From assembly GCF_901765095.1 (NCBI RefSeq), contig NC_044037.1, forward strand, positions 104,231,279 through 104,295,278: DNA of 64,000 bases, written 5' to 3'. Positions 8,850-41,098 of the stretch are shown in pieces (positions within the stretch are counted from its first letter, which is position 1; the number at the start of each line of letters is the position of its first letter). Below the pieces are notes generated by a model, which made no database searches, was not told the origin of the DNA, and was given only the letters and a program-made list of their open reading frames with translations. Position numbers and translations under genes: made by a program. Origin of the DNA: Microcaecilia unicolor. Taxonomy: Eukaryota.

Positions 8850-8940
8850 TCACTCATATTTTTATTTATTTATTTTATTTGTAGCATTTGTATCCCACAT
8901 TTTCCCACCAATTTGCATGCTCAATGTGGCTTACATTTGC
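8850..8940 (-). mobile_element. LINE-A tail fragment
   Basis: reverse complement of tttgtatcccacattttcccaccaatttgcatgctcaatgtggcttaca. Confidence 0.5.
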
Positions 8941-10270: not shown

Positions 10271-10589
10271 AATAAACTTGGAACCCTTAGAGACACTGCA
10301 GAGGGAACCAGAGCCTGGCAGAGGTGAGAGGAGAAGAGCAAAGAAAAGGTGAGAGGGAGTTTGCTGACTGTGAGAACCACAGAGAATCAGGGCAAAGAGA
10401 ATCCAGCCAAGAGGTTGAGTGGGAGAGAGAGAAAGTTCAACCAAGACACCTGCAGGGAAGCAGAGATACAACCCTGAGTGCTCACTGAAAAACTGCCCAG
10501 AACAGAACAGCTGGTTGTGAGAGACACTGTTGAGACAGCAGATTCTAATGAGACTAGAGGGCATGACTGTAAATTTAGAAAAACTGTGG

Positions 10590-11135: not shown

Positions 11136-11761
11136 TTTATACCAATAGAAGTTATACAAAAGGGGGAAGACTGGCCCTCCTAAATCCTTCTACCCTACCT
11201 ATTTGTCCAGCTACCCCTTTTGTGCCCCACCCCATCAAATTCCTACTTTTTAGACCAGTCACATCCCTCCATTAGATTTCCTCCTTATCTATCACCTTTT
11301 GCCATTCACCACCCAATCCTATCAACTTCTCCAAACAACTATTAGTGACCACTGTTTACATTTCTAGAGTCCAATTGTATTCGACAAGCTCAACCTACAT
11401 CTTAGACAACCTTAAAGCCCCTTTCAATGAAGACGTTCAGCACTTTCTTTATGTTTAAATCTATTTTTATTGGATGGCAGTCATAATCAACATCACATTT
11501 TACACAATTCTTCCATATATACTTAAACCCAAGTATTTGACAAAACTTTCATCATATGATTATACATATTATGGGCGAATGCTATCGCCTTGTCTCTTAA
11601 ACTTTTAGTAACAAGAACATCTGTATTGACAGCTTTCACTATACATCTGAATTTGGTTATCTTTCATCCTTTTGAAAACTTTTATCTCCCCTCTCCCTCC
11701 CATTCTAACTCCCCTCTCCCCCCCCCCCCCCCCCCGTCCCTTTTAAGTCATAGCAGTTTAG

Positions 11762-14700
11762 TCAGTAGTTCAGTATGTGGCTACGTGCTGCAGATGTCAT
11801 TGAGTCCCAAAACGGACTCCAACGCTGTTGGAATTTCACTCCAATCCTTGACTCCAAGTCCCTTATAGACATGCGCTCCATACGTAATAGGGACACCATA
11901 CGAACATGCCACTGCTGCCATGTAGGGTATTGATAGGATAGCCACTCTGCAAGGATCGCTTGCTTACCAACAATTATTACTCTCTGTATAAATGCAGCAT
12001 ATCCTTTTTTTTTTGAGGACACCCCCAAGTCTGGATGTCCAAATAGCAACAGTGGGTCATAATGCCATGTTTGTCTCCATATCTTGGTGACCCAGGCTAT
12101 GATTTGTTTCCAAAATTTCTGTATACCGACGCAAGTCCAAAACATATGGCCTAGAGTAGCTCCTGGGGCACCACATTTTACACAATCTCCCCAGGGCAAT
12201 AACCCCATGTAAAATGCTCGTTTTGGTGGGATGTACAGGCGTAGAGCTATTTTATATTGTAGTTCCCAGTGGGTCGCAAAATCTGTGACTCATCTTATCT
12301 GCAGGACATGAGATTTCAGCTGTTGTTCTAAGACTGTTATTTGCAAATCCCCAGTCCACAAGTGTGCCAATCTGCGGTATTCCAGTTCTGCGGTTGTATC
12401 CCGTATATGTCTGTGATGATACGACATCGGTACTCTCTGCTGCGACTCCAAGGTAAAAGCTGAAGAGAGTTCTTCTTGAACATCTTCTGTCATCGATGTC
12501 CATGGTAGTGTAGAGATATAGTGGCTCAGCTGTCCATAATAAAATTTATCACTGTCCAATAGTGTATATTCGTTTTGCAAGTCTGGAAACGTTCGCATAT
12601 GACCTTCTCTAGTCACCACTTGTAACAAATATACTATTCCTTTTTGTTTCCATTTTTGAAATACAGAGTACATTTGACCTGGTACAAAAGCAAAGTTATC
12701 ACAAATTTGTAAGTATGGTGTCACTTTTATATCAAAGTGGTGTAATCGGCACACCCATCTCCATATTGCTCTAGCCGTTGTCATAATCCCAGAGTATTTT
12801 AAGGTATATGGCATGGGTGCGCCTGTAGCGTGTAGGTAATTGCTAAAATGTAATTTCGGGGTAAGGCTCAATTCTAGGGCTGTATTTGTGTAATCACTGG
12901 TATTCCTATACCAGTCATTTATGTGCCTCATTCCGCTAGCAACATTAAGATAGCGGAGGTTTAAGACTCCCATCCCTCCATATTCCACTGGTATACTTAA
13001 AGAATTAACAGATAAACGGGCCTTTTTCCCTTTCCAAAGAAAGGTCTGTAGCTGTTGATTCAAAATCTGTTCATCTTTTCTCCTCAAATACAGTGGTATA
13101 GTTTGAAAACAATAAATCCATCTGGGGGCTATAATCATATTAAATAATGCTATTCTCCCTAGTAACGATACCGGGAGTGCACTCCAAGTTTGTAAACTTA
13201 ATTTTGTGTCTGTAAGCAGTTTTTGTAAATTAAGTTCATATAGCTGTGACAACTGATCTGGAATGCGGATTCCCAAATACTTAATAAATCTCTTCTCCCA
13301 AGTAAGGGGAAAATTATTCTTCCAATCTTGGTTATCTCCCTTAACTACCTCTAACGCTGACGATTTAGACATATTTAGCTTAAGACCTGATAGTTGTCCA
13401 TATCTATTTATCTCAGTTAACAAAACTCGCATTGATCTAGGTGGGTCAGTGACAGTCAACAGCAAGTCATCAGCGAAAGCCAGTACCTTCACCTGCTGTC
13501 CTGCCACCGATATTCCTGTAATGTTTCTTTGTTTCATGAGTGTACGTATGAGTGGTTCTAATGATATCACAAAGAGGGAAGGTGAAAGAGGGCAACCTTG
13601 CCTAGTACCCCTCATAATCTCAAACTCTTTCCCTCGCAATCCATTAACCAACACTTGTGCTCCTGGCTTGTAGTAAAGAGCCTGAGTCGCTCACAGAAAC
13701 CAGCCTGTAATTCCCATAGCTTCCATAGTATGAAATAAGTATTCCCACCCTACCCTGTCAAATGCTTTATCTGCATCTAGACTCACTATTACTGATGGGA
13801 TCTCCCCCTCTTGGCTGGATGCCATCGCCAATAATAGGCGGCGTACATTATGCGTGGCTTGCCTATTTCGAACAAAGCCTACTTGCTCCATTCCAATTAA
13901 TTTGGGCAGATATTTTGCAAGTCTTTCCGCCAGTATTCCTGCCAACAGTTTTGTGTCTACGTTCAACAGAGATATTGGTCGGAAATCTTCTGCTCTATTA
14001 TGCGGTCTTCCCGGTTTAGGTATTAATGTAATTAAAGCTGAGTTGGCAAAACGGGGGAAGCCCCTCCTCTCTATCACCTCCTCAAAATATTCTAGTAATG
14101 CCAGCTGTGCTTCCAGGGGCAAGCTTTTGTAATATTCCCCGGAATACCCATCGGGTCCTGGTGCCTTGCGTAATTTAAGTTTCTTAATCGCCTGTTGCAG
14201 TTCTCCCAGGATCAGTGGTGCATTTAGCACAGTCAATTCTTCACTCGTCAACTTTGTGAGCCCCGCCTTATCTAAGTATTCGTGTACCAAACTTGGTTCT
14301 GGTGGAGCACTGGCTGAGTAAAGTGAGGTGAAATGATTAGTAAAACCCTGCCCAATTTCATTTTGTGTGACTATAATTTTACCTGTATCATCCTTTAACG
14401 CAGCCACCACCCGAGGTGCACCCCAATTTTTGATAACTCTAGTTAATAACCTCCCTGTTTTATTACCAAAACGTTGCAATTTATATTTATAGTAGATCGA
14501 GGATCTGGTCTCATTTTCATGCAATAAAGTGTTTAGAGTTATTTGGATTGCTTTCATATTCTCTAAAGCAGTTAATGTGTGTTTATGTGCATATATTCTC
14601 TTAGCTTTCGCTAGCTGTTTTTCTAGGCGCAGAATGTTTGCCACCCGCCGCTTTCTCCTAATATTACAATAGGCTATGAGGTCACCTCTCAAGACTGCTT

Positions 14701-15571
14701 TCGAGGCAGACCAAAATAAAGATGGGTCTGTTTGTGCATGTTCCTTATTATTAATAGCGTAATCACCCCACTTATTTGCCAAGTATTTCTGAAACAGGGG
14801 GTCGTTATGTAAATATGCTGGGTATCGCCATCCTGTTCCTCCAGCACCCCCGCCCGTAATCTCGAGATCTAGCCACACTGATGCATGGTCTGATATTTCT
14901 TCCGGTCCTATATGGGCTGCCTTTACCTGGGAAAACATAGATCTTTCTATGAATATGTAATCTAACCTCGCTAAGGTGCCATGTGCCCTGGATCTATGTG
15001 TGTAATCTTTTTCCCCAGGATGCATCACTCTCCAGGTATCCACTAGGTTTAGAGCTTTTGTGAACATTTTCAATCCTTTCGCCCTCTGTCCTAAATAATG
15101 TGATGAAGTGGGATTTGAGGTATCTTCTCTTGGATTAGATACTAAATTAAAGTCACCCAATACCAACAATTTATTTATTTTATGTTGGATACAACTATTT
15201 TCTAGCGATCTGAAAAACCCTGGGTCATATTCATTTGGGCCATATACCCCCACTAATAAAAATTCAGTGCCCTGCATCCATACCTTTAAAAGGAGGGTAC
15301 ACCCGTGTTTCCCTTTCTCCACTACCGATATTTTACATGCTAGTCCTTTTCGGATTAATACCACCACTCCACCTCGGCGCCCTTTGGCTGCTACTGCATG
15401 GCATTCCCCCACCCATGATCTTTGCAACTTTGCATGTTCCACATCATTAAGTCTCGTTTCCTGAAGGCAAACTATATCAGCCTTATACCTTTTTAAGGCC
15501 GTTAAGATTTTATTCCGCTTTATAGGGGATGTTATACCCCCCACATTCCAAGATATTATTCTAATTGGCAT
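11762..15571 (-). pseudogene. L1 ORF2 (AP-endonuclease + reverse transcriptase + C-terminal Cys domain), single frame interrupted by two in-frame stops
   Basis: MPIRIISWNVGGITSPIKRNKILTALKRYKADIVCLQETRL.. (EN); ..FADDLLLTV.. (RT); C..C..HMFWTC (C-term). All three pieces share the reading frame (end coordinates congruent mod 3). Confidence 0.8.
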
Positions 15572-15969
15572 ACCATGAAAGTAATATTAGTATTCCCACC
15601 ATCACCACCATATAAGGGCACCCCCTTGTTCATTGAGCACATATTGTAATTTGTCAGGTTTCTCATAATCTGTGCACATAAATATTCTATTAATAAGTTT
15701 CTAAATAAACATTTCTTACTGACCATCTGCCAAAGATTTCCCCCCAATCTATTTCCCCTTCCCCCCTCCCATCCCCTTATCCCATCAACCCCACATATAC
15801 CCTTCCCCATCCACCTAAACTAGTCAGGTGTTGAGATAAGGACTTCAGTGAACAGTAGAGACCCCAAACTCCACAGATTAACCAAACATACATACATACA
15901 CTTATTCTGAAGGTTTTATACATTGTAACTCCCACAGAACGCTTCTGCACAATGGAAATAAACTTATGT

Positions 15970-16836
15970 TCAAACAGCATCAATGATGTTATTTTCGACG
16001 AGATATTTTTTCGCATCTGATACTGTAGGGAATATTTTCCACTGGTCCTGTATGAGCACTTTTAATTGGGCTGGGTATTGCAATACAAAGCGGATTTTCT
16101 TAAGTACCAAGGTTGAACAAATCGCATGATATTGCCTCCGTTTCTCTTGAACTAGAGTAGAAAAGTCTTGAAAAATCAACACATTCTTTTTATTGTATTT
16201 CAGCGTATCTCTTTTGTGCTTGAATCCTTGAAGGATTTCTAATTTATGGCGATAATTTAGTATTTTCGCGACAACCACGCGTGGGCGGTTATTATGGCAA
16301 TCCTCTGTTCGGCGGCCCACGCGGTGTGCTCTTTCCACAATAAGCGGTCCCATCGTATCTGTAATCGCTAACTCTTTTGAGAGCCATGTTTCCAGCCACG
16401 TGTCAAGGTTTCTTTCTGGGAGCGCCTCGTCCAGTCCGACAATCCGTATATTATTTCGACGTGCTCGATTTTCAAAGTCATCCAACAAGTTTCTTTGATC
16501 TGCGAGCTGGCGTCGTAGGTTTATAATATCTGGGCTAAATCCACGTGTATCATCTTCAACGGCTGAAATTCTGGCCTCCAAATCTCCTACCCGGATTCCC
16601 ATCCCGTCTAATGTAGTTTGGTAAGCTTCTATTTTGGTATTCAGCGCTTCCCATTTCGGCTCCCATGCTTTCGTGATCGCCTGGGTAAGCTGCAGGAGTT
16701 GATTTTCAGTAAACGCAGGTCCCATAATCGCGGGTTCCTCCGCCATCTTGGTATCCCCGCTGCCTGTTTTAAGTTTGTCTTTTTTCACGGATTTTTGAGC
16801 CATGTCTTTCGGAAGCACTTTGTAGTATTTTTCCAT
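15970..16836 (-). CDS. L1 ORF1p (coiled-coil + RRM-like + CTD), apparently intact, 288 aa
   Basis: ..LEARISAVEDDTRGF..DFENRARRNNIRIVGLDE..PRVVVAKILNYRHKLEILQ..VLIFQDFS..; homologous to the ORF1 at 36295-37203. Confidence 0.75.
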   Translation of the reverse strand: MEKYYKVLPKDMAQKSVKKDKLKTGSGDTKMAEEPAIMGPAFTENQLLQLTQAITKAWEPKWEALNTKIEAYQTTLDGMGIRVGDLEARISAVEDDTRGFSPDIINLRRQLADQRNLLDDFENRARRNNIRIVGLDEALPERNLDTWLETWLSKELAITDTMGPLIVERAHRVGRRTEDCHNNRPRVVVAKILNYRHKLEILQGFKHKRDTLKYNKKNVLIFQDFSTLVQEKRRQYHAICSTLVLKKIRFVLQYPAQLKVLIQDQWKIFPTVSDAKKYLVENNIIDAV

Positions 16837-25548: not shown

Positions 25549-27178
25549 GAGATAAAATTTCTAGAAGTAATTAATGACTGCTTCTTGCAGCAGCTAGTCC
25601 AGGAACCGACAAGAAGGGTAGCTATTTTGGATCTGGTCCTTGGTGGCATGCAGGGCATAGTTTGAGAGGTGGCGGTGTTGGGTCCCCTGGAAAAGAGTGA
25701 TCATAACATGATTAAATCTGAGCTACACCTGCAAAGGAAATCTACTGTAGCTGCATTTCATTTTCGAAAGGGCAACTATAATAAAATGAGGAAAATGAGT
25801 GGAGGAGTGGCCTAGTTGTTAGGGTGGTGGACTTTGGTCCTGGGGAACTGAGTTTGATTCCCACTTCAGGCACAGGCAGCTCCTTGTGACTCTGGGCAAG
25901 TCACTTAACCCTCCATTGCCCCAGGTACAAATAAGTACCTGTATACAATATGTATGCCGCATTGAGCCTGCCATGAGTGGGAAAGCGCGGGGTATAAATG
26001 TAACAAAAAAATGGTTAAAAAGAAACTAAAAGGATTGGCTGCAAAGGTTAGGACATTAAATCAGGTGTGGACTTTACTCAAAAAAATACCATCTTGGAAG
26101 CCCAGTCCAGATGCATTCCATGTATTTGCAAAGGTGAAGAGAAGAGAAAACGTCAGCCAGCATGGTTAAAAGGTGAAGTAAAAGAGGCCATTACAGCCAA
26201 AAGATTGTCCTTCAAAGAATAGAAAAAGCACACAAATAAAGAAAATAAGAAGCAACATAAGCACTGGCAAGTCACATGCAAAGCATTAATAAAGAAGGCT
26301 AAAAGAGAATATGAAGAGAAACTTGCCACAGAGGCTAAAACTAACAGTAACAACTTTTCCAGGTACAACAGAAGCAGAAAGCCTATAAGGGAATCCATGG
26401 GACCGTTAGATCATGAAGGAGCAAAAGGGGCACTCAGGGAGGACAAGGCCATAGCGGAGAAACTGAATGAATTCTTTGCTTCTGTCTTTACAGAAGAAGA
26501 TGTAAGAGATCTGCCTGTACCGGAAATGGTTTAGAAGGGTGATGATGTGGAGGAACTGAAAGAAATGTCGGTGAACCTGGAAGAAGTACTGAGCCAAACT
26601 GACAAATTAAAGAGTAGTAAATCACCTGGACTGGATGGCATACATCCAAGAGTACTCAAAGAACTCAAGCATGAAATTGCTGATCTGCTGTTAGTAATAT
26701 GTAACCTGTCATTAAAATCGTTCGTAGTATCTGAAGATTGGAGGGTGGCCAATGTGATGCCGATTTCTAAAAAGGGTTCTAGGTGTGATCCGGGAAATTA
26801 CAGACCGGTAAGCCTGACATCAGTGCAAGGCAAAATAATGGAAACTATTATAAAGAATAAAATTAAAGAACCAGTACACAAACATGGTTTAATGGGACAG
26901 TCTGCATGGGTTCAGCCGAGGGAAGTCTTGCCTCACCAATTTGCTTCTTTTCTTTGAAGGCGTGAATAAACATGTGGATAAAGGTGAGCCGGTTGATGTA
27001 GTGTATCTAGATTTTCAAAAAGCTTTTGATAAAGTTCCTCATGAGAGACTCCTGAGAAAATTGAAGAGTCATGGGATAGGACGCAAGGTTCTGGTGTGGA
27101 TTGAGAATTGGTTATTGCACAGAAAACAGAGGGTAGGGTTAAATGGTCATGTCTCTCAATGCAGGAGGATAATCAGTT
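25548..27178 (+). mobile_element. CR1-A copy 1, 5' part (EN C-term, linker, RT N-term); continues at 29512-29560 and 30187-30725
   Basis: ..ILDLVLGGMQGIV..SDHNMIKSELHL..FHFRKGNYNKMRKM[SINE]..KKKLKGLAAKVRTLNQVW.. then ORF 26547-26957 SKSPGLDGIHPRVLKEL..EDWRVANVMPISKKG..GNYRPVSLTS and 26941-27165 FFEGVNKHVDKGEPVDVVYLDFQKAFDKVPHERL..RVGLNG. Confidence 0.7.
25802..25995 (+). mobile_element. tRNA-derived SINE with MIR-like core and LINE-A-derived 3' tail, inserted in CR1 copy 1
   Basis: ggaggagtggcctagttgttagggtggtgg..gagtttgattccc (A/B-box-like) ; gggcaagtcacttaaccctccattgcccc (MIR-like core) ; tgtatgccgcattgagcctgccatgagtgggaaagcgcggggtataaatgtaacaaaaaaa (LINE-A-like tail); flanks ..aaaatgagt | aaaaaaatgg.. 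suggest a short AAAATG-like TSD. Confidence 0.6.
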
Positions 27179-29510
27179 TTGATATCAACCTTGAAGTAAC
27201 TATACATAGGAAGTTAAATACGTTAGCGTTTAACTTTAAAAAAGGAGACTATGATAAAATGAGAAGAACGGTTAAGAAAAAACTTAGAGGGGCAACTGAG
27301 ACGGTAAAAACTGTACAACAGGCATGGATGCTATTCAAAAATACCATCCTGGAGGCCCAGGCCAAACATATTCTGCGAATTAGAAAAGAAAGACGGAAGT
27401 CCAAAAGACAGCCGGCGTGGTTAAAAAGTGAGGTGAAGGAAGCTATTAGGGCTAAAAGAAACGCCTTCAGAAAATGGAACAAGGAACCGTCTGAAAATAA
27501 CAAGAAGCAGCATAAGGAGTGTCAAAGCAAATGCAAGGCGCAGATAAAGAAGGCCAAGAGGGATTATGAAAAAAAGATAGCAGTAGAGGCAAAAAAACAT
27601 AGTAAAATTTTTTTCGGTATATTAAAAGCAGGAAGCCGGCAAAAGAATCGGTTGGGCTGCTGGATGACCGAGGGGTAAAAGGGGCGATCAAGGAAGACAA
27701 AGACGTAGCGGAGAGATTAAATGAATTCTTTGCTTCGGTCTTCCCCCAGGAAGAATGGGTGGGATACCGGTGTCAGAAATGGTATTTCAAGTGGACGAGT
27801 CGGAGAAACTTACTGAATTCACGGTAAACCTGGAGGACATAATGGGGCAGTTCAGCAAACTGAAGAGTAGCAAATCACCTGGACCAGATGGTATTCATCC
27901 TAGAGTACTGATAGAACTGAAAAATGAACTTGCGGAGCTACTGTTAGTGATATGCAATTTATCCTTAAAATCGAGCGTGGTACCGGAAGATTGGAGGGTG
28001 GCCAATGTAACGCCGATTTTTAAAAAAGGTTCCAGGGGAGATCCAGGAAATTATAGACTGGTGAGTCTGAAGTCAGTGCCGGGGAAAATGGTAGAGGTTA
28101 TTATTAAAAACAAAATTACAGAGCACATCCGAGGACATGGATTACTGAGACCAAGTCAGCACGGCTTTAGTGTGGGGAAATCTTGCCTGACCAATTTACT
28201 TCAATTCTTTGAAGGAGTAAACAAACATGTGGACAAAGGGGAGCCGGTTGATATTGTGTATCTGGATTTTCAAAAGGCGTTTGACAAGGTGCCTCATGAA
28301 AGACTACAGAGGAAATTGGAGGGTCATGGGATAGGAGGTAATGTTTTATTGTGGATTAAAAACTGGTTGAAGGATAGGAAACAGAGAGTGGGGTTAAATG
28401 GGCAGTATTCACAATGGAGAAGGGTAGTTAGTGGGGTTCCTCAGGGGTCAGTGCTAGGACCGCTGCTTTTTAATATATTTTCAAATGAATTAGAGATGGG
28501 AGTAACTAGCGAGGTAATTAAATTTGCTGATGACACAAAGTTATTCAAAGTCATTAATTTGCGAGAGGATTGTGAAAAATTACAGAAGGACCTTACGAGA
28601 CTGGGAGACTGGGCGGCTAAATGGCAGACGACGTTTAATGTGAGCAAGTGTAAGGTGATGCATGTGGGAAAAAAGAACCCGAATTATAGCTACGTCATGC
28701 AAGGTTCCACGCTAGGAGTTACGGACCAAGAAAGGGATCTGGGAGTCGTCGTTAATAATACACTGAAACCTTCTGCTCAGTGTGCTGCTGCGGCTAGGAA
28801 AGCGAATAGAATGTTGGGTATTATTAGGAAAGGTATAGAAAACAGGTGTGAGGATGTTATAATGCCGTTGTATCATTCCATGGTGCGACTGCACCTTGAG
28901 TATTGTGTCCAATTCTGGTCGCAGCATCTCAAGAAAGATATAGTGGAATTGGAAAAGGTGCAGCGAAGGGTGATAAAAATGATAGCGGGGATGGGACGAC
29001 TTCCCTATGAAGAAAGACTAAGGAGGCTAGGGCTTTTCAGCTTGGAGAAGAGACGGCTGAGGGGAGACTTGATAGAGGTATATAAAATAATGAGTGGAGT
29101 GGAACAGATGGATGTGAAGCGTCTGTTCACGCTTGCAAAAAATAGTAGGACTAGGGGGCATGCAATGAAACTACAGTGTAGTACATTTAAAACAAATAGG
29201 AGAAAATATTTCTTCACCCAACACATAATTAAACTCTGGAATTTGTTGCCAGAGAGCGTGGTGAAGGCGGTTAGCTTGGCAGAGTTTAAAAAGGGTTTGG
29301 ATGGTTTCCTAAAGGATAAGTCCATAGACCGCTACTAAATGGACTTGGGAAAAATCCACAATTTCGGGAATAACATGCATAGAATGTTTGTACGTTTGGG
29401 AAGCTACCAGGTGCCCTTGACCTGCATTGGCCGCTGTCGGGGACAGGATGCTGGGCTTAATGGGCCTTTGGTCTTTTCCCAGTATGGCATTACTTATGTA
29501 CTTATGTAAC
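27178..29510 (+). mobile_element. CR1-A copy 2 (5'-truncated, young), nested inside copy 1; ends in 8-bp (CTTATGTA)2 tail
   Basis: starts in linker (FNFKKGDYDKMRRTVKKKL..), intact RT to stop, 3' UTR ..attggccgctgtcggggacaggatgctgggcttaatgggcctttggtcttttcccagtatggcattacttatgtacttatgta. Confidence 0.8.
27755..29338 (+). CDS. CR1 ORF2 reverse-transcriptase region through native stop (527 aa open, partial: 5'-truncated element)
   Basis: SKSPGPDGIHPRVL..DWRVANVTPIFKKG..NYRLVSL..LDFQKAFDKVPH..SGVPQGSVLGPLLFNIF..KFADDTKL..FNVSKCKVMHVG..EYCVQFWS..VQRRV..RGH..FFTQ..WNLLP. Confidence 0.85.
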   Translation: MGGIPVSEMVFQVDESEKLTEFTVNLEDIMGQFSKLKSSKSPGPDGIHPRVLIELKNELAELLLVICNLSLKSSVVPEDWRVANVTPIFKKGSRGDPGNYRLVSLKSVPGKMVEVIIKNKITEHIRGHGLLRPSQHGFSVGKSCLTNLLQFFEGVNKHVDKGEPVDIVYLDFQKAFDKVPHERLQRKLEGHGIGGNVLLWIKNWLKDRKQRVGLNGQYSQWRRVVSGVPQGSVLGPLLFNIFSNELEMGVTSEVIKFADDTKLFKVINLREDCEKLQKDLTRLGDWAAKWQTTFNVSKCKVMHVGKKNPNYSYVMQGSTLGVTDQERDLGVVVNNTLKPSAQCAAAARKANRMLGIIRKGIENRCEDVIMPLYHSMVRLHLEYCVQFWSQHLKKDIVELEKVQRRVIKMIAGMGRLPYEERLRRLGLFSLEKRRLRGDLIEVYKIMSGVEQMDVKRLFTLAKNSRTRGHAMKLQCSTFKTNRRKYFFTQHIIKLWNLLPESVVKAVSLAEFKKGLDGFLKDKSIDRY

Positions 29511-30186: not shown

Positions 30187-30725
30187 TTGGGTGTCATTGC
30201 AGATAATACGCTGAAATCTTCTGCTCAGTGTGTGGCGGTGGCGGCCAAAAAAGCAAACAGAATGCTAGGAATTATTAGGAAAGGGATGGGTAATAAGACT
30301 GAAAATACTATAATGCCTTTTTACCGCTCCGTGGTGCGCCCGCACTTTGAGTATTGCATTCAGTTCTGGTCGCCGTATCTCAAAAAGATATAGCAGAATT
30401 AGATAAGGTTGAAAGGAGAGCGACCAAAATGATAAAGGGGATGGAACTCCTCTCGTATGAGGAAAGGCTAAAGAGGATAGGGCTCTTCAGCTTGGGAAAG
30501 AGATGAATGAGGGGAGATATGATTGAAGTCTACAAATTCCTGCGTGATGAAGAACAAGTAGAAGTAAATTGATTTTTTACTTGTTCCAAAAGTACAAAGA
30601 CTAGGGGACACTCGAGGAAGTTACTTTTAAAACAAATAGGAGGAAATATATTTTCACTCAATGAATAGTTAAGGTCTGGACCTCTTAGCCAGAGGATGTG
30701 GTAACAGCAGTTAGTGTTTCTGGGT
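30187..30725 (+). pseudogene. CR1-A copy 1 ORF C-terminal remnant (resumes after two nested insertions)
   Basis: ORF 30187-30393 ..KSSAQCVAVAAKKANRMLGIIRKGMGNKTENTIMPFYRSVVRPHFEYCIQFWSPYLKK, then frameshifted ..RGH..RRKYIFTQ.. Confidence 0.65.
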
Positions 30726-30739
30726 TTTTTTTTTTATTA

Positions 30740-33700
30740 TTTTTTTATTTATAAATTTAAATCATTATTTCAAGGATTTACACTTGATCAGGAAAGTGTT
30801 ATTAACAATCAAAATATTAAAGGAAATGTTATATAACATATATAATAACATTCAGGCCGACAGGTAAGGAGCTCAGGTAAGGAGCTCCTGAGGTCCAGAA
30901 CAAAAAGACCTACCTGACCATCCAACGCCGTTCACGACCGGTCTGGAATGGACCGGAACTGAAACGGAACTGATCCAAAGCCGACTGGGGAGCTGCAGGA
31001 CCACGGGCTGAACGCCAGCACGAACGAACAAACCCGAGACGACCTGTCTGCTAGTTGCCACGAGGTCGAAACGCATCCCTGGCCGGCAAGGACCACCTGG
31101 GCATATTTAAGCCTGCCTGGATCAGTCTGATCAACCCCAGCCGAGCTGAATCTGGAGCTGAGACCGCAGCTGAAACCGACCGGTGGATCACCAGCGGTCC
31201 GACCGGACTGAAATCCAGCCGGGCGGAGGCCAACCGACGGCCTAGCGGGAGACCGCCACGAGGTTCACCACGAGGTTGCGCCCCCGCAATCCGAATCAGG
31301 AGCACCGGAGAGACCATCGAAACCGGTGTGGAGACGGAGAGCCCAGAGGTGGAGAACCCAGAGGTGAGCCGCGACCACATCTTACAACTCCGCGTGGCCA
31401 CCCAGTGAGTTCGGGGAGCCGTGTTCGTGGCACCGGAAACGATCCGGCCGACCACGCGACCGGTGGAAAGTTGACCGGACAGTGGTTCGAAGCCCGGAAG
31501 GCCGCGGAACAAGCGGAGCGCCGACCGGCCTGGTTGGCCTGAGGACTGGAAAACAGGAGCGGCCTATCCCCAATGTGGCACGCTCCAGAATCGTCCGACT
31601 GCTGCCCAGGAAGCCGCAAGCGGATTGAGGGAAGTAGGCGCACCCCGCACCCGACTGCTCCACGCGTCGGAGCGCAGACAGACAAGAGTCGACCAGCTTG
31701 AGGTGCGGCAAAGCGACGGCGACTCCTGAGCCACACACAAGTCCTGTGGTGGCTGCATTAGAGACACCGAGCACCAGACAACCGAGCCACTGGTCCCCGT
31801 GGCTGCTGGGAACAGGAGCTACCTCCCGAGGCTGAACTGAGTAATAAAATACCTGCTCGTCTTAAATGCATGCATGCACTGCTTTAGCATGATTTAAAAA
31901 TCCTCGCTATACTCTGCTCACACTAAACTGAATGCAACTGTGTCTTAGGCCAATATAGCACCTTTAAATGTTGCCAAGCTTTAATTTAAATTGCTGCTAA
32001 GACCAATGCATAATAGCGAACTGTTACCAAGCAAGCTTTAGCTTTTACATAATTTAAAATCCTTGCTTCACCCTGCTTTGCTTTGCTTTGCTTACTGCCA
32101 GCTTTGAACTAAACTGTTGCTAAGCTTAATTGAAAATGTTAGCACTACTCCGCGTGAATTGTAGCCAAGCTCAAATGCAATTGTAAACGTTGTATCGCTC
32201 AAATACACACCAATTACTTATTTGTCACAGCACCCAACACACAGAAATGAACACCAGCAATACACTCATAACCATCCAGTGTCTCATTATATTCGTACAC
32301 GCAAACACAACACAAAACCTAGACAACAACAACTCCACTACTCACAATCCGCATAACACTCACACACACACCATGCATGCCCAAAACAACAACCCACTTA
32401 CATATCACCAATCCCATGCACAACCTTTAAACAACCTACCAAATCAAAGACACAACAACAACCAACCAACTGGAACAAACCCCGAATATGTACACCACCG
32501 ACGAAATAAGGAAAACAATGAAAACAACAGACTCAACCAACGAAAAAACAGACAGTTAATAAAAATAAACACATCTAACCCCACCTTGGAACCACATCAC
32601 CCAATCCAACTAGGATACGTCAATGCAAGATCAGCAGTAAGCAACTCGATAGACATACTAGATTGGATCACCACAGACAAACTAGACCTCTTATTTATCA
32701 CAGAAACCTGGTTCCATAGTCCTACGGACCCCGCCATCCTACAAACGTGCCCACCAGAATACAAAATCACGCACTGGACAAGAAATGGAAAAAAAAGAGG
32801 AGGCGGAATAGCTTTAATACACAAACCTGAATTCACCATCACAATCACAGGCGAATCTACCTCACCACAACTTGAAATTGCTTCGACAAGAATCAACCAT
32901 CCAAGCCTAATAGGACACCTTAACACAATCCTATTCTACAGGCCACCAGGAAAATGGCAAGACGCCCAAACACAACTCATGGATTTCATCTCGAATACCT
33001 GCGTATCAACCTCAAACATCCTCATACTAGGCGACATCAACTTACACCTAGAAGATGACACCATACCAAGTACACGAGAATTCAAAGAACTCCTACAACT
33101 CTGGGATCTGCAAATACCCAACTTACAACCAACACATGAAAAAGGACACACACTAGATATCATAACAAATAGACTCGAACCGAATTCAACTATCACACTT
33201 ACCAACACAAAATGGACACCCACATTATGGTCAGACCACCATAAAGCAAATGTCACCCTTTACTGGCAAAAAATACAACCAAACACAATCAACAAACATG
33301 AGCGAACAACCTACACAACGAGAGGAAAAATAAACCCCACAACATTCTGGCAACAGATCTACCAGAGCGAATGGATTACAAACGCTAGCACCATCCAATT
33401 CCTCCAAGAATGGGACGATATAAGCATAACAACATTAGACAAAATCGCCCCAGCCCAAACCAGAACATCACACAGGAAAAATGCAAATCCATGGTTCAAT
33501 GAAGAGCTGAAAAAACTGAAAACACAAGTCAGGAGACTTGAACGAGCCTGGAACAAAAAGAGAGATGAACAAACACTAAACGACTGGAAACAACTTCGAA
33601 GAAAATACAAATACACCATCAAACAGACAAAAAGACTACACTACAAAACATTAATAGGACCAAACTACAAAGACACACATAAACTCTTCAACCTCGTAAA

Positions 33701-35830
33701 CAAACTGTTAGACACCACACCTGTCACAACCAACAGCAAAGATATACCAAGTGTCGACAACCTTGCAAAATACTTCAAGGAGAAAATTGTACAATTACGA
33801 CACAAAATACCCGCAAGCCCTATAGAATACACCGTTCTCCTAGACTGTCTAGATCCAGTAGAAGGAACACACCCAGCAGACAGAACCTGGACCGAATTTG
33901 AACTATTACCAGAAGAACTCATCTCTAAAACTCTCAAAAAATATGCCAAATCTAACTGCAAACTAGACAAATGTCCAAACAGCCTCATGCAAACTGCTCC
34001 TCAACAATTCATAATAAACCTAACAAACCACATAAACTACATGCTACAAAATGGACTCTTCCCAAAAGAAAAAGGAAAAATCTTACTCACACCAATTCCT
34101 AAAGACACAAAGAAAAACACGAGCGAAATAACCAACTACAGGCCAATTGCATCCATACCACTAATAACCAAGATAACCGAAGGTATGGTTACCAAACAAC
34201 TCACAAACTATCTAGACAAACATTCAATATTGCACGATGCCCAATCAGGATTCCGTTCGAATCACAGCACAGAAACAGTATTAGTCACCCTTATGACCAA
34301 ATTCAAACAAATAATTGCAACCGGCAACAATATACTCCTACTACAATTTGACATGTCTAGCGCCTTCGACATGGTTGACCATGAAATCCTACTACACATA
34401 CTTGAATACTTTGGCATCGGAGGAAATGTCTTGAATTGGTTCAAGGGGTTCCTAACCCTGTGCTCGTACCAAGTCACATCAAATTCAACCACGTCCAAGG
34501 CATGGATACCTGAATGTGGAGTCCCACAAGGATCACCTCTCTCTCCAACTATATTCAACCTAATGATGATCCCTTTAGCAAAACTCCTATCAAACCACAA
34601 CCTCAACCCGTATATATATGCCGATGATGTAACCATATACATCCCATTCAAACAAGACATCAAAGAAATCTCCAGTGAAATCAATCAAAGTCTACACATC
34701 ATGAACACATGGGCAGATGCATTCCGCCTGAAACTAAACGCAGAAAAAACCCAAAGCCTGATACTCACCTCCCAATACAACACAACTGAGTTCAACGTGA
34801 TAAACACACCAAACCTAAAACTTCCAATCTCAGAAACGCTAAAAATCCTTGGAGTGACTATCGACCACCACCTAACACTCAAAACTCACGCAAATAACAT
34901 AACCAAGAAGATGTTCTTCAGCATGTGGAAATTGAAAAGGATTAGACCATTCTTCCCAAGATCCGTCTTCCGTAGCCTAGTGCAATCCCTCGTCCTTAGC
35001 CACTTGGACTACTGCAACTCATTATACGCAGGCTGCAAAGAGCAAATACTGAGGAAACTTCAAACAGCCCAGAACACAGCAGCCAGGCTCATCTTCGGAA
35101 AACCTAAATATGAAAGGGCAAAACCACTACGAGAGAAACTACATTGGCTTCCACTCAAGGACCGCGTTACTTTTAAAACTTGCACACTAGTCCATAAGAT
35201 CATTTACGGTGAAGCCCCAGCGTACATGTCTGATTTAATAGACCTACCACCTAGAAATGCCAAAAGATCGTCCCGAACTCACCTCAACCTCCACTACCCA
35301 ACCTGCAAGGGCTTGAAGTACAAGACGATACACGCGTCAACCTTTTCCTACAAGAGCACGAAGTCCTGGAATACATTACCACGCAACCTAAGAATGATTA
35401 ACGAACAAACCTCCTTCCGTAAACTACTGAAGACACACCTGTTTGAACAAACCTACGGAAAGAGCCAAAACACATAGAAACTACTGACTGTTCACAATGC
35501 AATACACATCCACATCTGATCCATCATCCCTTTATCCAGTCAATCACACATTCAACCATGGAACTACAGTATGTACACTATATGTCTAGGTGCCTATTAA
35601 TGCCCTTTTTTCTCTCATTGTCTCCTTCTAATGTCCCTATGTTGTTGTCCCACTGCTATACTACTAAGGATATTCGAATGTCTCGCACAACTCTGTTCAA
35701 TGTATTCTATAACCTAGTCGTAACAAATGTATTTCTATTATTCAAGTCTTATTGTAAGCCACGCTGAGCCCGCAAATAGGTGGGAAAATGTGGGATACAA
35801 ATGCAACAAATAATAATAATAATTATATTA
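30740..35830 (+). mobile_element. full-length L2-clade LINE (LINE-A): ~1.4-kb 5' UTR (CpG-rich block 30870-31850, ~130-bp tandem repeats 31870-32130), ORF2, 350-bp 3' UTR ending in the family tail + (AATA)n
   Basis: tail at 35750-35825 tgtaagccacgctgagcccgcaaataggtgggaaaatgtgggatacaaatgcaacaaataataataataat; 5' boundary inferred from where CR1 copy 1 breaks off (30725). Confidence 0.7.
32190..35477 (+). CDS. LINE-A ORF2: AP-endonuclease + reverse transcriptase + L2-type C-terminal region, 1095 aa, intact
   Basis: ..SIDILDWITTDKLDLLFITETW.. (EN); ..YRPIASIPLITKITE..FRSNHSTETVLV..LLQFDMSSAFDMVDHEILL..GVPQGSPLSPTIFNL..YADDVTIYIP (RT); ..HWLPLKDRVTFK..LWN.LP..FRKLLKTHLF (C-term). Confidence 0.88.
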   Translation: MYRSNTHQLLICHSTQHTEMNTSNTLITIQCLIIFVHANTTQNLDNNNSTTHNPHNTHTHTMHAQNNNPLTYHQSHAQPLNNLPNQRHNNNQPTGTNPEYVHHRRNKENNENNRLNQRKNRQLIKINTSNPTLEPHHPIQLGYVNARSAVSNSIDILDWITTDKLDLLFITETWFHSPTDPAILQTCPPEYKITHWTRNGKKRGGGIALIHKPEFTITITGESTSPQLEIASTRINHPSLIGHLNTILFYRPPGKWQDAQTQLMDFISNTCVSTSNILILGDINLHLEDDTIPSTREFKELLQLWDLQIPNLQPTHEKGHTLDIITNRLEPNSTITLTNTKWTPTLWSDHHKANVTLYWQKIQPNTINKHERTTYTTRGKINPTTFWQQIYQSEWITNASTIQFLQEWDDISITTLDKIAPAQTRTSHRKNANPWFNEELKKLKTQVRRLERAWNKKRDEQTLNDWKQLRRKYKYTIKQTKRLHYKTLIGPNYKDTHKLFNLVNKLLDTTPVTTNSKDIPSVDNLAKYFKEKIVQLRHKIPASPIEYTVLLDCLDPVEGTHPADRTWTEFELLPEELISKTLKKYAKSNCKLDKCPNSLMQTAPQQFIINLTNHINYMLQNGLFPKEKGKILLTPIPKDTKKNTSEITNYRPIASIPLITKITEGMVTKQLTNYLDKHSILHDAQSGFRSNHSTETVLVTLMTKFKQIIATGNNILLLQFDMSSAFDMVDHEILLHILEYFGIGGNVLNWFKGFLTLCSYQVTSNSTTSKAWIPECGVPQGSPLSPTIFNLMMIPLAKLLSNHNLNPYIYADDVTIYIPFKQDIKEISSEINQSLHIMNTWADAFRLKLNAEKTQSLILTSQYNTTEFNVINTPNLKLPISETLKILGVTIDHHLTLKTHANNITKKMFFSMWKLKRIRPFFPRSVFRSLVQSLVLSHLDYCNSLYAGCKEQILRKLQTAQNTAARLIFGKPKYERAKPLREKLHWLPLKDRVTFKTCTLVHKIIYGEAPAYMSDLIDLPPRNAKRSSRTHLNLHYPTCKGLKYKTIHASTFSYKSTKSWNTLPRNLRMINEQTSFRKLLKTHLFEQTYGKSQNT

Positions 35831-36294
35831 GATTCCATAATTACAAATAAGAGGAAAAAATAAGGAAACATTTTTTTAAAGGCAATTAAGCACCTAAGAT
35901 AGGATAGGAATTAAACAATTACTCTCCTGAAGCTCTTTTTGAGGCAACAAAGGATGTTTAATGGGAAGGTTCCATGAATATATATTTAACTGCATTATGT
36001 CTTATGATACATTTGCAAGGATATCTCAAATAGAATGTGCTCCCTAGTTGCAAAACGGCAGATTTCAATATTAGAAATTGTTTCCTCCTTCGCTGGGTTT
36101 CTCTCAAAACATCAGGGAACAGAAGAATTTTTAAACCCAAAAATAATAAAGGAGTCACGTGATGCTAGGCGAAAGGAAGGTCGCCGCTTGTTAGAGCTCC
36201 GAGACCCCTCATAGAACAACTTCCCCTAGCGCTGCACACATCAGCAGAAAAACCCACGAAATCGAGCCAGAAGGGTAAGGGAAACTTCTCCAGT

Positions 36295-37203
36295 GTGGGC
36301 AAAGGTTGGCTGGCTGAGATTCAGGTCGGAATGGATGCAAAAATCAGCCGGAAAGACAGCACACGAAGCCGCATGGGCGAAAACAAAATGGCGGAGATTG
36401 GCGCGTCGAGTGAGTCGGTGAGTTCCGCATGGGCGGCAGAGATAACCGCGGAAGTCTCAACCCTATTAGAGGCATCAGTCGATAAAAAACTGCAGAAAAT
36501 CTCAGATCAAATAGTGCAAATGGACGGTAAACTGGAAAGCTTACGCACAGATTTGACTGGGTTCCAGCAGAGGCTGTCGGACGTTGAAGATCAGTGCCAG
36601 CAATGTGAAAGCAAGCAAGAGCAAATGCAGGAGCAACTGAGCAAACTAGAAGCTAAAGTCGAAGATCTAGAAAATAGATCACGCCGGAATAATCTAAGGC
36701 TGGTGGGGCTGCCGGAGTCTATACGCGAGGCAGAGCTGTGGGAGTTCCTTGAAACATGACTGCCCAAGACGTTAAACTTACCCGGGCTGAAGAAGGAATT
36801 AAAAATTGAGCGAGCGCATCGGCTGGGCCGCGCTGGACAAGACTTAGAGAGGCCACGTGTAATAATATGCAAAATTCTCAACTATACCCACAAACAAGAA
36901 ATATTGCGAGCATGGAGGGCGAGAGGCAAAGTGCAGTATGAGACCCGCAATGTCCTTTGTTTTCAAGATTTTTCAGCCGCAGTGGCGGCCCAGCGCAGGC
37001 AATTTGTGGAAGTGTGCAAGCGCCTGTATGAAAAAAAGGATAACTTCGCCCTGATGTTCCCAGCCAAACGTAGAATTCAGTATAAGGGCAAACAACACTT
37101 CTTCAGCTCACATGTGGAGGCCTTGCACTTTGCTAACAAAATGGAGCAGAGACCGGAGGAAGAGAGCGAGGTCGCAAGTGTTAGCAGCCCAAGGGATCCC
37201 TGA
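36295..37203 (+). pseudogene. L1 ORF1p, single frame with one in-frame TGA at 36760
   Basis: ORFs 36295-36759 and 36904-37203 are in the same frame and the intervening 141 nt has no other stop; ..LEAKVEDLENRSRRNNLRLVGLPE..PRVIICKILNYTHKQEILRAWRARGKVQYETRNVLCFQDFS. Confidence 0.75.
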
Positions 37204-37893: not shown

Positions 37894-40800
37894 TGTGGGG
37901 GGGATTTCCTCACCTGTCAAACGTACTAAAGTCCTGCAGGCATTGCAGAGACACAGAGCAGACATAGCATTCCTCCAGGAGACCCATCTCTCCAATAATG
38001 AGCACAGCAAATTCCAGAAGGGTTGGGTGGAAATGGCAGTAGGCTCTCCAGCACTGGGTAAAAAGGGAGGAGTGTTGATATTAATTCGGAGGGGCCTGCA
38101 GATGCGAATTAAAACAATAAAACGGGATGAGGGAGGTAGGATAGTGATAATGGAAGTAGAAATAGGCACATCTTCATATAACCTGTGCAATATATATGCA
38201 CCCAATGTGTATGACAAGAAATTCTATAACAAGTTATTGGAACTGCTGGGCTCCTACCAGGGGGGCAATGTCATACTAGGAGGGGACTTCAACATGGTGA
38301 TAGACCCTGGGATTGATAGATGTGGTGAATTGGGTTTGCAGCATAGATTTCAATCACGAGGTGTGCCTTTCCTCTGCTCAGCCCTAAACTTGATAGATGT
38401 GTGGAGGGTGTTGCACACCTCGCAGAGGGACTATACTCACACCTCCAGAGCACACTTGACCCAATCCCGTATTGATTATTTTCTCATATCCCCGGCACTG
38501 TTTTCTCAAGTGCCAAAAGCAGAGATAGGCCCATGCGAGATTTCAGACCATGCGATAATATGGCTTGAACTACAGGTCACTGGAAGAGGGCTTGAGAAGG
38601 GAGGGTGGAGATTTCCATTTGAATTGTATAGAGATCCAAATTTTAAGTCATTCATAAGTGAAAAATGGCAGGAATTTGAACAATTTAATGGAGATCACCG
38701 ACACAATGCGGTACTGTACTGGGAAACAGCCAAAGCAGTTATGAGGGGAGAGGTGATAGCCAATAGAGCAAGAGCCAGGAAAATGAGGGACAAAGAGATC
38801 CTTCACTTGGAAAGAGAAGTTCGGGCGAGAAGAAAGAGACTAGGGGAGGAAGTCACGGATGAGAACAAGGAGTTGCTCATAACTCAGAAAAACCTAAATG
38901 AGCTCCTTCATCAAAGAGCACAGAAAACACAAATGTACTATAAACACCAGCTATTTCAATATGAAAACAAAGCAGGCGCATTATTAGGCAGGCTGGTGCA
39001 AGGGAAGAAAGGGCCCTCAAGGATTCTACAAATGAAGGATGGAGGAGGGAATCTCCTAAGGGAGACAGGAGATATTATAGGGAGATTTAGGGAATTTTTT
39101 ATGGCGCTATATGCAGATCCTACCAATATTGTGGAAGACAGTAACTTATATCTAACAAACCAAAATCTGCCCAAGATCACAGAGGAGCAAAGAGAGACTC
39201 TAAACAATCCTATTGTGGAAGGGGAATTGATGTTGGCCCTACAGCAGAGTGAATTACATAAGGCGCCGGGACCAGACAGATTCAGTATAGCATTCTATAA
39301 GATCCTACAAGAGCAGGTCACACTTCCCCTGTTAGATTTATACAACAACATGGTCTCAACCGGGACAATACCAGACTCCCTTAACATAGCAAAAATTATA
39401 TTATTACAAAAACCTGGGAGGGATGAAACTGAGGTAAGTTCCTATAGACCAATTTCCCTATTGAATAGTGATCTTAAATTATATGCGAAGATCCTGGCCA
39501 ACCGACTGGCAAAGCTTTTGCCTTGGTTAATAGCACCTCCTCAAGTTGGGTTTGTGCAAGGGAGGACAGTGGCAAAGAATATGAGGGCCCTGCTGGCATC
39601 CTTGGAGACAGTGGAACGACTGAAAAGGCCCTCTCTGGTTGTCAGTTTTGATGCGGAGAAGGCCTTTGATAGGGTGGTGTGGGGCTTTCTGTTTGCGGTG
39701 CTGACTAAGATGGGCATTGAAGGGGCTTTCCAAGAGGTGATAGGAGCACTCTATGTAAATCCCCAGGCATATTTGTGGATCAAGGGGGAACAGTCACCCT
39801 TATTCCCAATCAGGAGGGGTACGAGACAGGGGTGTCCTCTCTCGCCCCTACTATTTGTCTTGGCATTAGATCCATTGATCAGGGAAATTACGGATCACCC
39901 GGAAATAGAGGGGGTAAATTGGGGACCCGAAGGGTTTAAGGTATCTGCTTTTGCAGATGATATACTGGTTCACCTTACCCAACCAAAATGTTCGTTGGAG
40001 GCCTTATTAGAACTCTTTAGGGAATATGGGGATTTCGCTGGTTTTAAAATAAACTATTCAAAATCACTAGCGTTAGCAACTGACAATAGTGTGAGGCAGA
40101 TGTGGGGAGCAGCATTCCCACTGCGATGGGCATCAGAGTCACTCCAATACTTAGGGGTACAGATCCCCAAGAAAACATCGGAAATACATTTGATGAATAT
40201 AGGCAATAGGATCGCAGTTTTGAAGGACCGGCTAGACAAATGGGGAGTCCTGCCACTCAACCTGCATGGGAGAGTGCATCTGTTTCGTATGGTGGAATTT
40301 CCACGATGGTTATACTTATTTCAGGTACTCCCCATACGATTACGGGCTAAAGATTTAAATCAAATCTTCAAACATGTCAGGAAATTTATTTGGAGGGGGT
40401 CGAAGCCAAAACTCCCTTTGAAGTTAATGATGGGGTCGTGGAGAGAGGGAGGCATTGGATTACCAGACCTCCGTCGCTACAACCAGGCCAGTTTACTCCA
40501 GCACCTGGGTGATTGGTTATTAGATAGGCAAGATTATACCCCCTGTAGCCTGGAGCAAGAGTGCTTCAAACCTTTTCACTTATATTTTTTGTTGCAATGC
40601 CCGAGCCGCCAACTCCCGACATGGGTAAGCAACAGTGTATTGGTAAGACCTTTGAGACAGGTATGGAGAGAGTTAAATGAGACCTGGGGGCTAGCGGTGG
40701 ATATAACAGATCTTTTACCTCTGCAGGGTAACCCACAGTTCTCACCAGGTACGGAGAACAAAGTACTTTGTAGTTGGGCAACGATGGGGATCACCAGGTT

Positions 40801-41098
40801 GGAACATGTACTGGATTCTAAGGGACGATTATTGGAGCTAGGAGCTCTAGGGGTAGGTATCACTCAGAATCATCAATTTGCGTATTATCAGTTAGCACAT
40901 TATGCTAGATCTTTAGAGCAAGGGAAATTGAGCAGTGGACATGGGCGCCATATAAGGGCATTCTTTAGTTCCGTGCAAGGGAGGTGTTTATCGGTCTCTG
41001 GATTAGAAAAAGCGTTGGGGGAGTTGAGTAGGGGTAGAGATACAGAACGTATTTTAGGGAAATGGGCCCAAGATCTGAAGCGTCCGAACCTGAAATGA
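37894..41098 (+). CDS. L1 ORF2 endonuclease + reverse transcriptase, open for 1067 aa (frame open further upstream; C-terminal Cys domain 41099-41659 cut off by in-frame TGA 41096 and TAG 41271)
   Basis: LISWNVGGISSPVKRTKVLQALQRHRADIAFLQETHL.. (EN); ..SLVVSFDAEKAFDRV..RGTRQGCPLSPLLFVLALDPL..AFADDILVHL (RT); downstream same-frame ..CSKCGQREGTLYHYL*ECYKIQNFWRQI.. Confidence 0.85.

Follow-up and report, generated by a model that had tools for sequence, protein, structure and literature searches.

A probably young, well-preserved single-ORF L2-type LINE with a stem-loop tail in the genome of Microcaecilia unicolor

Results

An intact reading frame for an endonuclease and a reverse transcriptase

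We analysed a 64,000-nucleotide (nt) stretch of the Microcaecilia unicolor genome (contig NC_044037.1 of assembly GCF_901765095.1; hereafter the window, whose numbering is used throughout), in which an earlier note had described a full-length long interspersed nuclear element (LINE) of the L2 clade and a short interspersed nuclear element (SINE) sharing its 3′ tail. The locus is a LINE with an apurinic/apyrimidinic-type endonuclease (APE), a reverse transcriptase (RT), and an intact open reading frame (ORF). A single plus-strand frame is open throughout 32190–35477 (1095 codons, stop at 35475–35477), confirming the uninterrupted ORF2 of the earlier note, with a correction to its start. Specifically, the TTG at 32190 is an artefact of listing frames under the bacterial code and is no eukaryotic start; the first in-frame ATG is at 32247 (GAAATGA), giving a protein of 1076 amino acids (aa), and the second is at 32373 (ACCATGC), giving a protein of 1034 aa.

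A Pfam search of the 1095-codon ORF identifies Exo_endo_phos (PF03372) at aa 153–325 (5e-7) and RVT_1 (PF00078) at aa 640–891 (9e-36), and reveals no family beyond these two: no RNase H and no restriction-like endonuclease. In an alignment with the 11 best database relatives, the catalytic motifs of the endonuclease (EN) and the RT are all present and all lie in invariant columns. Together with the C-terminal domain that follows the RT (Table 1), these results bear out the EN, RT, and L2-type organisation that had been proposed for the protein. The AlphaFold model of the ORF has a mean predicted local distance difference test (pLDDT) score of 74.5 and is confident from residue 139 on. The best solved-structure matches of the model are to full-length human L1 ORF2p, at only 14% identity, indicating that the ORF has the fold of a LINE ORF2 protein and a sequence far from that of L1.

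The EN is preceded by a leader of ~150 low-complexity residues rich in N, H, Q, and T, as the earlier note had observed. The DNA of these 150 codons is A/C-rich (A 44%, C 32%, G 9%, T 16%), and residues 1–135 are modelled at a pLDDT of ~25. The leader contains no in-frame stop, whereas the other two frames contain 9 and 4, and ~6 would be expected from base composition by our estimate, indicating that the frame has been held open beyond what its composition provides. The leader is predicted to be disordered and matches no Pfam family. The nearest relatives of the element carry comparable leaders, ~100–300 residues in length, ahead of the EN, and have an N..NLI.I-like motif ~15–30 residues upstream of the EN that is also found in this ORF. 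The leader is therefore normal for the group, and is neither an ORF1 remnant nor a novel extension, the two origins that had been suggested for it.

A stem-loop tail shared by several L2-like subfamilies

The tail of the LINE spans 35753–35813 and is followed by (AAT)n up to 35827, with no poly(A). Searching the window with a tail profile yielded exactly seven copies at E ≤ 1e-17: the LINE itself, the SINE, and five fragments, with tails at 6540–6476 (−), 8727–8791 (+), 8936–8874 (−), 56491–56554 (+), and 60681–60744 (+). A 28-mer of the tail has 6 matches in the window, as compared with 0 in shuffled sequences. The earlier count of at least eight tail-bearing fragments is accordingly reduced to five plus the SINE; a candidate site in the 10200 area, near 10225, was rejected (E = 5 in the profile search). 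The characteristic tail itself is conserved and shared beyond chance, but the sequence that had been quoted for it, with (AATA)n or (AAAT)n following, is the consensus of the fragments; the tail of the LINE itself departs from that consensus at 4 of 61 positions and ends in (AAT)n.

The seven aligned tails share a consensus hairpin (RNAalifold) having 16 base pairs in three stacked stems; one of the pairs is compensatory, A-U being replaced by G-C in the SINE tail. When folded singly, tails have minimum free energies of −18.5 to −18.9 kcal/mol (z −3.2 to −3.6). Downstream of the hairpin there is an unpaired AAATGYAACAAATAA, followed by the terminal repeat, which comprises 2 to 7 units depending on the copy and is (AAAT)n in other copies. 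An Rfam search revealed no ribozyme or other RNA family in the element. Fragments with differing 3′ untranslated regions (UTRs) end in the same tail, indicating that one module of ~60 nt has been kept across at least four diverged L2-like subfamilies (39–71% protein identity). Four or more of the five fragments with the tail derive from 5′-truncated LINEs belonging to other L2-like subfamilies, and are not copies of this element.

Diverged tail-like sequence is present at 10225–10280 (+; ttgtaagccacctagat...gggatataaac), and downstream of it, at ~10960–11200 (+), lies a decayed endonuclease-coding stretch of another L2-like LINE, 25% identical in protein to aa 92–210 of the ORF.

A tail-binding motif in exact register and the probable placement in the L2 group

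We consider it likely that the element belongs to the L2 group, and specifically to its stringent type, like UnaL2 and ZfL2-2; this placement is made by motifs and architecture and not by RT phylogeny. Hayashi et al. mapped the tail-binding region of zebrafish L2 proteins between the EN and the RT, and reported that ZfL2-2 residues Pro324, Trp325, Glu341, and Trp344 are conserved across distant L2-clade LINEs and that basic residues equivalent to ZfL2-1 K379, R383, R387, and K390 are needed for stem-loop binding (PMC4176376). In the present ORF, PWFNEELKKLKTQVRRLERAW at aa 434–454 has P at 0, W at +1, E at +17, and W at +20, all in the ZfL2-2 register, and is in a helix in the AlphaFold model. 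Basic residues (K or R) are present at +7, +10, +14, and +18; +21 is missed (N), and K is present at +22 and +23. A six-frame scan of the window with the strict motif finds only this ORF and its 67% identical relative, at 63394, and no occurrence in the CR1 and L1 ORFs of the window. The exact-register motif and the 3′ architecture of UnaL2/ZfL2 type are the grounds for the L2 assignment.

The closest characterised counterparts of the element are eel UnaL2 and zebrafish ZfL2-2. UnaL2 has a single ORF and a conserved tail of ~60 bp in which a stem-loop is followed by a terminal (UGUAA)n, the two parts being needed for retrotransposition; its reverse transcription is initiated within the repeat, with template slippage, and its tail is common to UnaSINE1/2 (PMC1636434). 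Like UnaL2 and ZfL2-2, the present element encodes EN and RT in one ORF, with a basic tail-binding region that lies between the two domains and shows PW...E..W in the same register, and its tail is common to SINEs. As in UnaL2 and zebrafish L2, the 3′ tail is ~60 nt long and consists of a stem-loop split by internal loops and a short tandem repeat of variable number (PMC1636434). As in ZfL2-2, there are repeat units in the (candidate) 5′ UTR. The differences are as follows: the terminal repeat is (AAT)n/(AAAT)n and not (UGUAA)n, and the hairpin sequence and loop differ; the tail-binding motif occurs 110 residues later than in ZfL2-2 (P434 versus P324), the ORF starting ~110 residues further upstream of it; the candidate 5′ UTR, which contains a CpG-island-like block, is longer, at ~1.4 kb; the total length would be ~5.0 kb versus ~4.2 kb; and UnaL2 and ZfL2-2 have functional data, whereas this element is known from its sequence alone.

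Two clades represented in the window were considered for the element and rejected. The L1 clade was rejected because the match of the ORF to human L1 ORF2p is weak and confined to the RT (4e-11 to 2.4e-10, as compared with 2e-137 for the window L1 ORF at 37895–41098), because the window L1 is undetected by tblastn, and because there is no poly(A). The CR1 clade was rejected because the ORF is only 23% identical in protein to the window CR1 copy at 27956–29323 (tblastn) and because the 3′ UTR and tail differ.

Among proteins in the database, which are unlabelled, the best relative is 29% identical, and the matches of the ORF in the PDB are limited to L1 and R2. The metagenome-derived L2-like relatives P0001–P0004 (loci L001–L005) have ORFs that are 27–29% identical over 87% of the query. 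They share with the present ORF the N..NLI.I motif ahead of the EN, LERxW/Y, LDYCNSL, LHWLP..R..FK, and a terminal FKxxLKTxLF; their elements have (ATT)n ends after a short 3′ UTR, with unrelated flanks in four contigs. They differ in being very distant in sequence, in having upstream regions that are short and not CpG-rich, and, in L002 and L003, in having a small overlapping upstream ORF of 110 aa. In L002 (positions 1–690 of the contig of P0004), tandem units of ~205–210 bp lie upstream of the ORF, and its copies end in (ATT)8–10. The C-terminal motifs LHWLP...FK and FKxxLKTxLF, which we take to be typical of L2 consensus sequences and which serve here as a lead and not as a test, are absent from the CR1 copies of the window.

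We consider it improbable that the element belongs not to L2 proper but to RTE or to a sister clade in the CR1/Jockey group (Rex1/Babar, CR1/L3, Crack, Daphne, or similar). The L2 clade is formally defined by clustering of the RT domain with L2 references in a phylogeny. Short repeats and stem-loops at the 3′ end are found in other stringent LINEs as well, the tails of CORE-SINEs are known to come from different LINE clades, the database relatives are distant and unlabelled, and, as a further point that weighs against the L2 placement, the tail-binding motif is not documented as absent from the sister clades. Nevertheless, the residues published for the L2 clade are found in exact register and are lacking from the CR1 and L1 ORFs of the window, the identity to the window CR1 is low, the C-terminal motifs are common to the closest relatives, and the plan of a single ORF plus tail equals that of UnaL2 and ZfL2-2.

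A CpG-island-like block and degenerate repeats upstream of the ORF

The region upstream of the ORF comprises a GC-rich block followed by an AT-rich leader (Table 1). The position 30740 at which the element had been said to begin is inside a T-run and is unsupported; the one abrupt boundary is at 30856/30857, where the composition switches, and AT-rich DNA is present on both sides of 30857–35827. The ~1-kb CpG-rich block that had been described does exist, at 30857–31845: it is 989 bp long, has 62% GC, 85 CpG, and a CpG observed/expected ratio of 0.89, as compared with 0.42 for the window, and has the composition by which CpG islands are recognised. The ~130-bp tandem repeats that had been reported between the block and the ORF are not detected by Tandem Repeats Finder upstream of the ORF; instead, there are two degenerate direct copies of ~155–160 bp, at 31881–32033 and 32041–32170 (z = 7.9 versus shuffles in local alignment). 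The AT-rich repeat region fits an L2 5′ UTR, since repeat units are present in the 5′ UTR of ZfL2-2 and the ~205–210-bp units are present upstream of the L002 ORF.

Composition and ATG content suggest that the GC-rich block may well be part of the element, an assignment that we favour with some reserve. The block has an AT skew of +0.33 (A>T), like the ORF. Its plus strand contains 2 ATGs, as compared with 10.1 expected (z = −4.1), a count as low being obtained in 0 of 1000 dinucleotide shuffles, and ATG is the most depleted of the 64 trinucleotides on that strand; its minus strand contains 6 ATGs, as compared with 6.1 expected, and shows no depletion. The block contains no long ATG-initiated plus-strand frame (no ORF1) and has no Pfam match and no Rfam match.

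A number of results weigh against this assignment and against calling the element full-length. The GC skew of the block is ~0 (G~C), as compared with −0.3 to −0.6 (C>G) in the ORF, and the composition switches sharply at 31846. Deviations as large as that of ATG are seen for other trinucleotides of the block, and 9 ATGs are present within the 400 nt separating the block from the ORF. Internal periodicity of the block, of the kind expected of 5′-UTR monomers, is not significant (z ≤ 2.9). No target-site duplication of at least 10 nt was found around the element, the longest common word being a 9-nt T-run. No second copy of the 5′ region was found in the window, where the only internal relative is truncated at aa 348. 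No external copy was found either: an exact-protein look-up was empty, a 26-mer of the block and a 25-mer of the tail were unmatched in metagenomes, and a viral scan was empty. Because neither a target-site duplication nor another copy of the 5′ region was found, ownership of the block and the full-length status claimed in the earlier note are unproven.

The competing account, to which we give a sizeable chance though a smaller one, is that the L2 element is 5′-truncated or shorter, and that the block has another source: a CpG island of the host, part of some other element, or 5′ transduction from an upstream promoter through read-through transcription of a source copy. Besides the missing block copy and target-site duplication and the break in GC skew and composition at 31846, it is favoured by the want of internal repeats in the block comparable to the 5′-UTR units of ZfL2-2 or L002, by an AATAAA at the 3′ edge of the block (~31842), and by the nearest relatives, which have less than 0.7 kb upstream of the ORF. 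It is also favoured by the 129 bp to the left of the block (30728–30856), which appear to be a minus-strand poly(A) end and would make the neighbourhood a nest of insertions. However, the flanks are AT-rich DNA in a nest of transposable elements without gene evidence, and the block matches no Pfam or Rfam family; its A>T skew matches that of the LINE sense strand, its ATG depletion is confined to the plus strand, and its high CpG observed/expected ratio fits DNA as young as the intact ORF. Membership of the block in the element is, by a modest margin, the likelier reading.

The 129-bp stretch, which has 17% GC, lies between a CR1 fragment and the GC block; its minus strand reads as a poly(A)-ended 3′ terminus with AATAAA, and it has no other copy in the window. 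The CR1 fragment, which ends at 30727, does not resume after 35830, where alignment scores are within those of shuffles.

A MIR-like SINE with an L2-type tail

The SINE of the earlier note extends to ~26011 rather than 25995. In particular, its head contains an A-box-like TGGCCTAGTTG that matches TRGCNNAGTGG at 10 of 11 positions and a B-box-like AGTTTGATTCC that matches GGTTCGANNCC at 9 of 11 positions, 43 nt apart, the only such pair in the window. Neither ARAGORN nor the Rfam tRNA model calls a tRNA in the head, and the tRNA-like head described previously is thus reduced to A- and B-box-like motifs, which make a tRNA derivation plausible. The MIR-like core is upheld: TGTGACTCTGGGCAAGTCACTTAACC is identical at 24 of 26 positions to the mammalian MIR core printed in PMC6344866.

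The last ~58 nt of the SINE align to all six LINE tails (74–83% identity, E 1e-5 to 3e-11) and form the same hairpin. The SINE tail is 74% identical to the tail of this LINE, from which it differs in the apical loop, and 82.5% identical to the tail of the 8375 subfamily. Its own version of the tail reads CCGCATT...AGCGCGG, with CAUGA as the loop. In the zebrafish L2 system, it is the loop that decides which protein binds (PMC4176376). The proposal of a LINE with a partner SINE that borrows its tail is therefore sustained as to a MIR-core SINE with a homologous tail, but a tie to this particular LINE is not demonstrated: given the 74% identity and the differing loop, the SINE, of which the window contains a single copy, is a user of the tail family and not demonstrably the partner of this element. 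At three sites the SINE tail (25951–26004) reads CpG, whereas the LINE tails all read CpA or TpG; one of these differences is the compensatory stem change (G-C versus A-U).

Neighbouring elements

The window contains further LINEs and fragments. Decayed L2-like ORF2 fragments at 530–2288 and 4121–4592 (+) are 44% and 35% identical in protein to the ORF, indicating that there are several old L2 lineages in the window. SINE-like sequence at ~63030–63140 (+), containing …tatagcgctactagacgtacgcagcgctgtaca…gagcttacaatcta…, immediately precedes the truncated L2 relative at 63142.

Directly downstream of the L2 element there is an L1 (36295–41098, +), which has an intact 1067-aa EN–RT ORF at 37895–41098 (human L1 ORF2p, E = 2e-137) preceded by a coiled-coil ORF1-like ORF at 36295–36759. 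A second L1-like element (12290–16836, −) is 36% identical in protein to the first over 1062 residues and is split into ORFs of 454, 626, and 288 aa. A CR1 fragment at 30400–30727 (+) stops where a CR1 3′ piece at 57933–58162 (+), 27 kb away, begins, with a 6-nt gap on the reference copy; the two pieces may be one old CR1 split by later insertions, or the match may be a coincidence. Sequences at 35982–36119 and 57720–57860 (+) are 64% similar and lie just upstream of the L1 ORF1-like ORF and of the CR1 3′ piece, respectively.

Table 1. Features of the L2-type element and of related elements in the window
Feature	Coordinates	Strand	Basis
CpG-island-like GC-rich block, candidate 5′ UTR/internal promoter	30857–31845	+	composition, skew, ATG depletion
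AT-rich leader with two degenerate ~155–160-bp direct repeats	31846–32246	+	repeat finding, local alignment
Single long ORF (ORF2-type)	32190–35477	+	open frame, Pfam, ATG positions
N-terminal leader, aa 1–135, N/H/Q/T-rich, low complexity, predicted disordered	32190–32594	+	pLDDT ~25, stop counts, relatives
APE-type endonuclease, ~aa 139–360	32604–33269	+	PF03372; NARS, TETW, YRPP, GDIN, PTH, SDH; L1 EN fold match
Tail-binding-region motif PWFNEELKKLKTQVRRLERAW, aa 434–454	33489–33551	+	register with ZfL2-2 residues; helix in model
Reverse transcriptase, aa 640–891; FDMSSAFD, GVPQGS, YADD	34107–34862	+	RVT_1; invariant columns; PDB matches to R2 and L1 ORF2p RTs
C-terminal domain; LDYCNSL, LHWLP..R..FK, FRKLLKTHLF	34863–35474	+	aligns with P0001–P0004; helical model, high pLDDT
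Family-specific 3′ UTR, 275 nt	35478–35752	+	not common to other tail-bearing fragments
Conserved 3′ stem-loop, 47 nt, three stacked stems with internal loops between	35753–35799	+	RNAalifold, minimum free energy
Unpaired AAATGCAACAAATAA, then terminal (AAT)n; 3′ end of element	35800–35827	+	tail alignment, repeat finding
MIR-like CORE-SINE	25802–26011	+	A-box-like 25808–25818, B-box-like 25851–25861, MIR core 25885–25910, L2-type tail 25951–26004, then A-run
5′-truncated copy of related L2-like subfamily, 71% aa; ORF2 C-terminus (...FRKALKTHLF...), own 3′ UTR, same tail	6458–7497	−	sequence comparison
5′-truncated L2-like copy, 56% aa at C-terminus (...FRKTLKTHLF...), own 3′ UTR, same tail	8375–8791	+	tblastn, tail profile
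Tail-only fragment adjoining microsatellite; too short for LINE/SINE assignment	8863–8936	−	tail profile
LINE 3′ fragment with tail; 3′ UTR 79% like that of the 8375–8791 copy	56366–56566	+	alignment
5′-truncated L2-like copy, 39% aa at C-terminus (...FRKSLKTYFF...), own 3′ UTR, same tail	60338–60744	+	tblastn, tail profile
Closest relative in window, 67% aa, 74% nt; starts at aa 348, 5′-truncated, cut by window end	63142–64000	+	tblastn

Discussion

Our analysis of the locus indicates that the element is probably a well-preserved, young, single-ORF L2-type LINE with a canonical tail of the stringent type. The earlier account was right in outline, and went too far on how many tail copies there are and of what kind, on the tandem repeats, on the element being full-length, and on the N-terminus being novel.

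The reading that we favour, and that we hold with good confidence, is that the locus is a recently inserted non-long-terminal-repeat retrotransposon with a single ORF. It is highly improbable that the ORF is instead an inactive remnant whose frame happens to have stayed open, or an RT gene domesticated by the host. The A/C-rich composition does lower the frequency of stops in part of the frame, and no identical copies were seen. Nevertheless, no stop interrupts the 1095 codons of this frame, the other frames are closed, no catalytic residue has been lost, the element has an intact hairpin tail and microsatellite of its own, its neighbours include other young LINEs, and it has no introns and no host-gene context. 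The element, as a recent insertion, is possibly also retrotransposition-competent. Its intactness is the only sign of activity.

By analogy with the UnaL2 and ZfL2 experiments, a life cycle can be proposed in which the ORF protein would use the PW...ERAW region to bind the stem-loop of the RNA that encodes it, the target DNA would be nicked by the endonuclease, and reverse transcription would start in the terminal (AAT/AAAT)n with template slippage, which would account for the variable number of terminal repeat units. Frequent early termination would yield 5′-truncated copies such as those nearby. SINE RNAs would, by the same analogy, be made by RNA polymerase III from the A and B boxes and be mobilised in trans by any L2 lineage able to recognise the form of the tail that they carry. 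In the weakest step of this scheme, the ~1.4 kb upstream of the first ATG would serve as a 5′ UTR and internal promoter, consisting of the CpG block and then the AT-rich leader with its two ~155-bp repeats.

A more far-reaching version, which we regard as unlikely, is that this L2 lineage continues to be active in a vertebrate of tetrapod grade, driven by an acquired, AUG-poor, CpG-island-like 5′-UTR promoter of ~1 kb, and with a functional disordered leader of ~100 aa. To our knowledge, a CpG-island-like 5′ end of this type has not been described for L2. If this version were true, the element would offer an L2/MIR system that is amenable to experiment and does not come from a fish.

A sizeable share of the regulatory DNA of mammals consists of L2/MIR fossils. 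Except in fish and in a few reptiles and monotremes, L2 elements that are still intact are uncommon. The coexistence of an L2-type LINE with CORE/MIR SINEs bearing an L2-type tail is a feature that this genome shares with the mammalian L2/MIR pair and with the L2 and MIR of tuatara and platypus (PMC7116210). The mammalian elements are ancient fossils, whereas the present ORF is intact; the L2 and MIR families of tuatara and platypus have been recently active, and tuatara L2 is reported to be possibly active still (PMC7116210). The tail of the present element may also resemble that of human L2/MIR. No concept is changed by the present element, since for every feature seen in it a counterpart has been described, either in UnaL2/ZfL2-2 or in L2/MIR. 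It would help the annotation of the repeats of this genome, and, as a well-preserved and potentially competent copy having a hairpin tail and a tail-binding motif, with a MIR-core SINE in the same genome, it could be a useful substrate for retrotransposition and RNA-binding assays.

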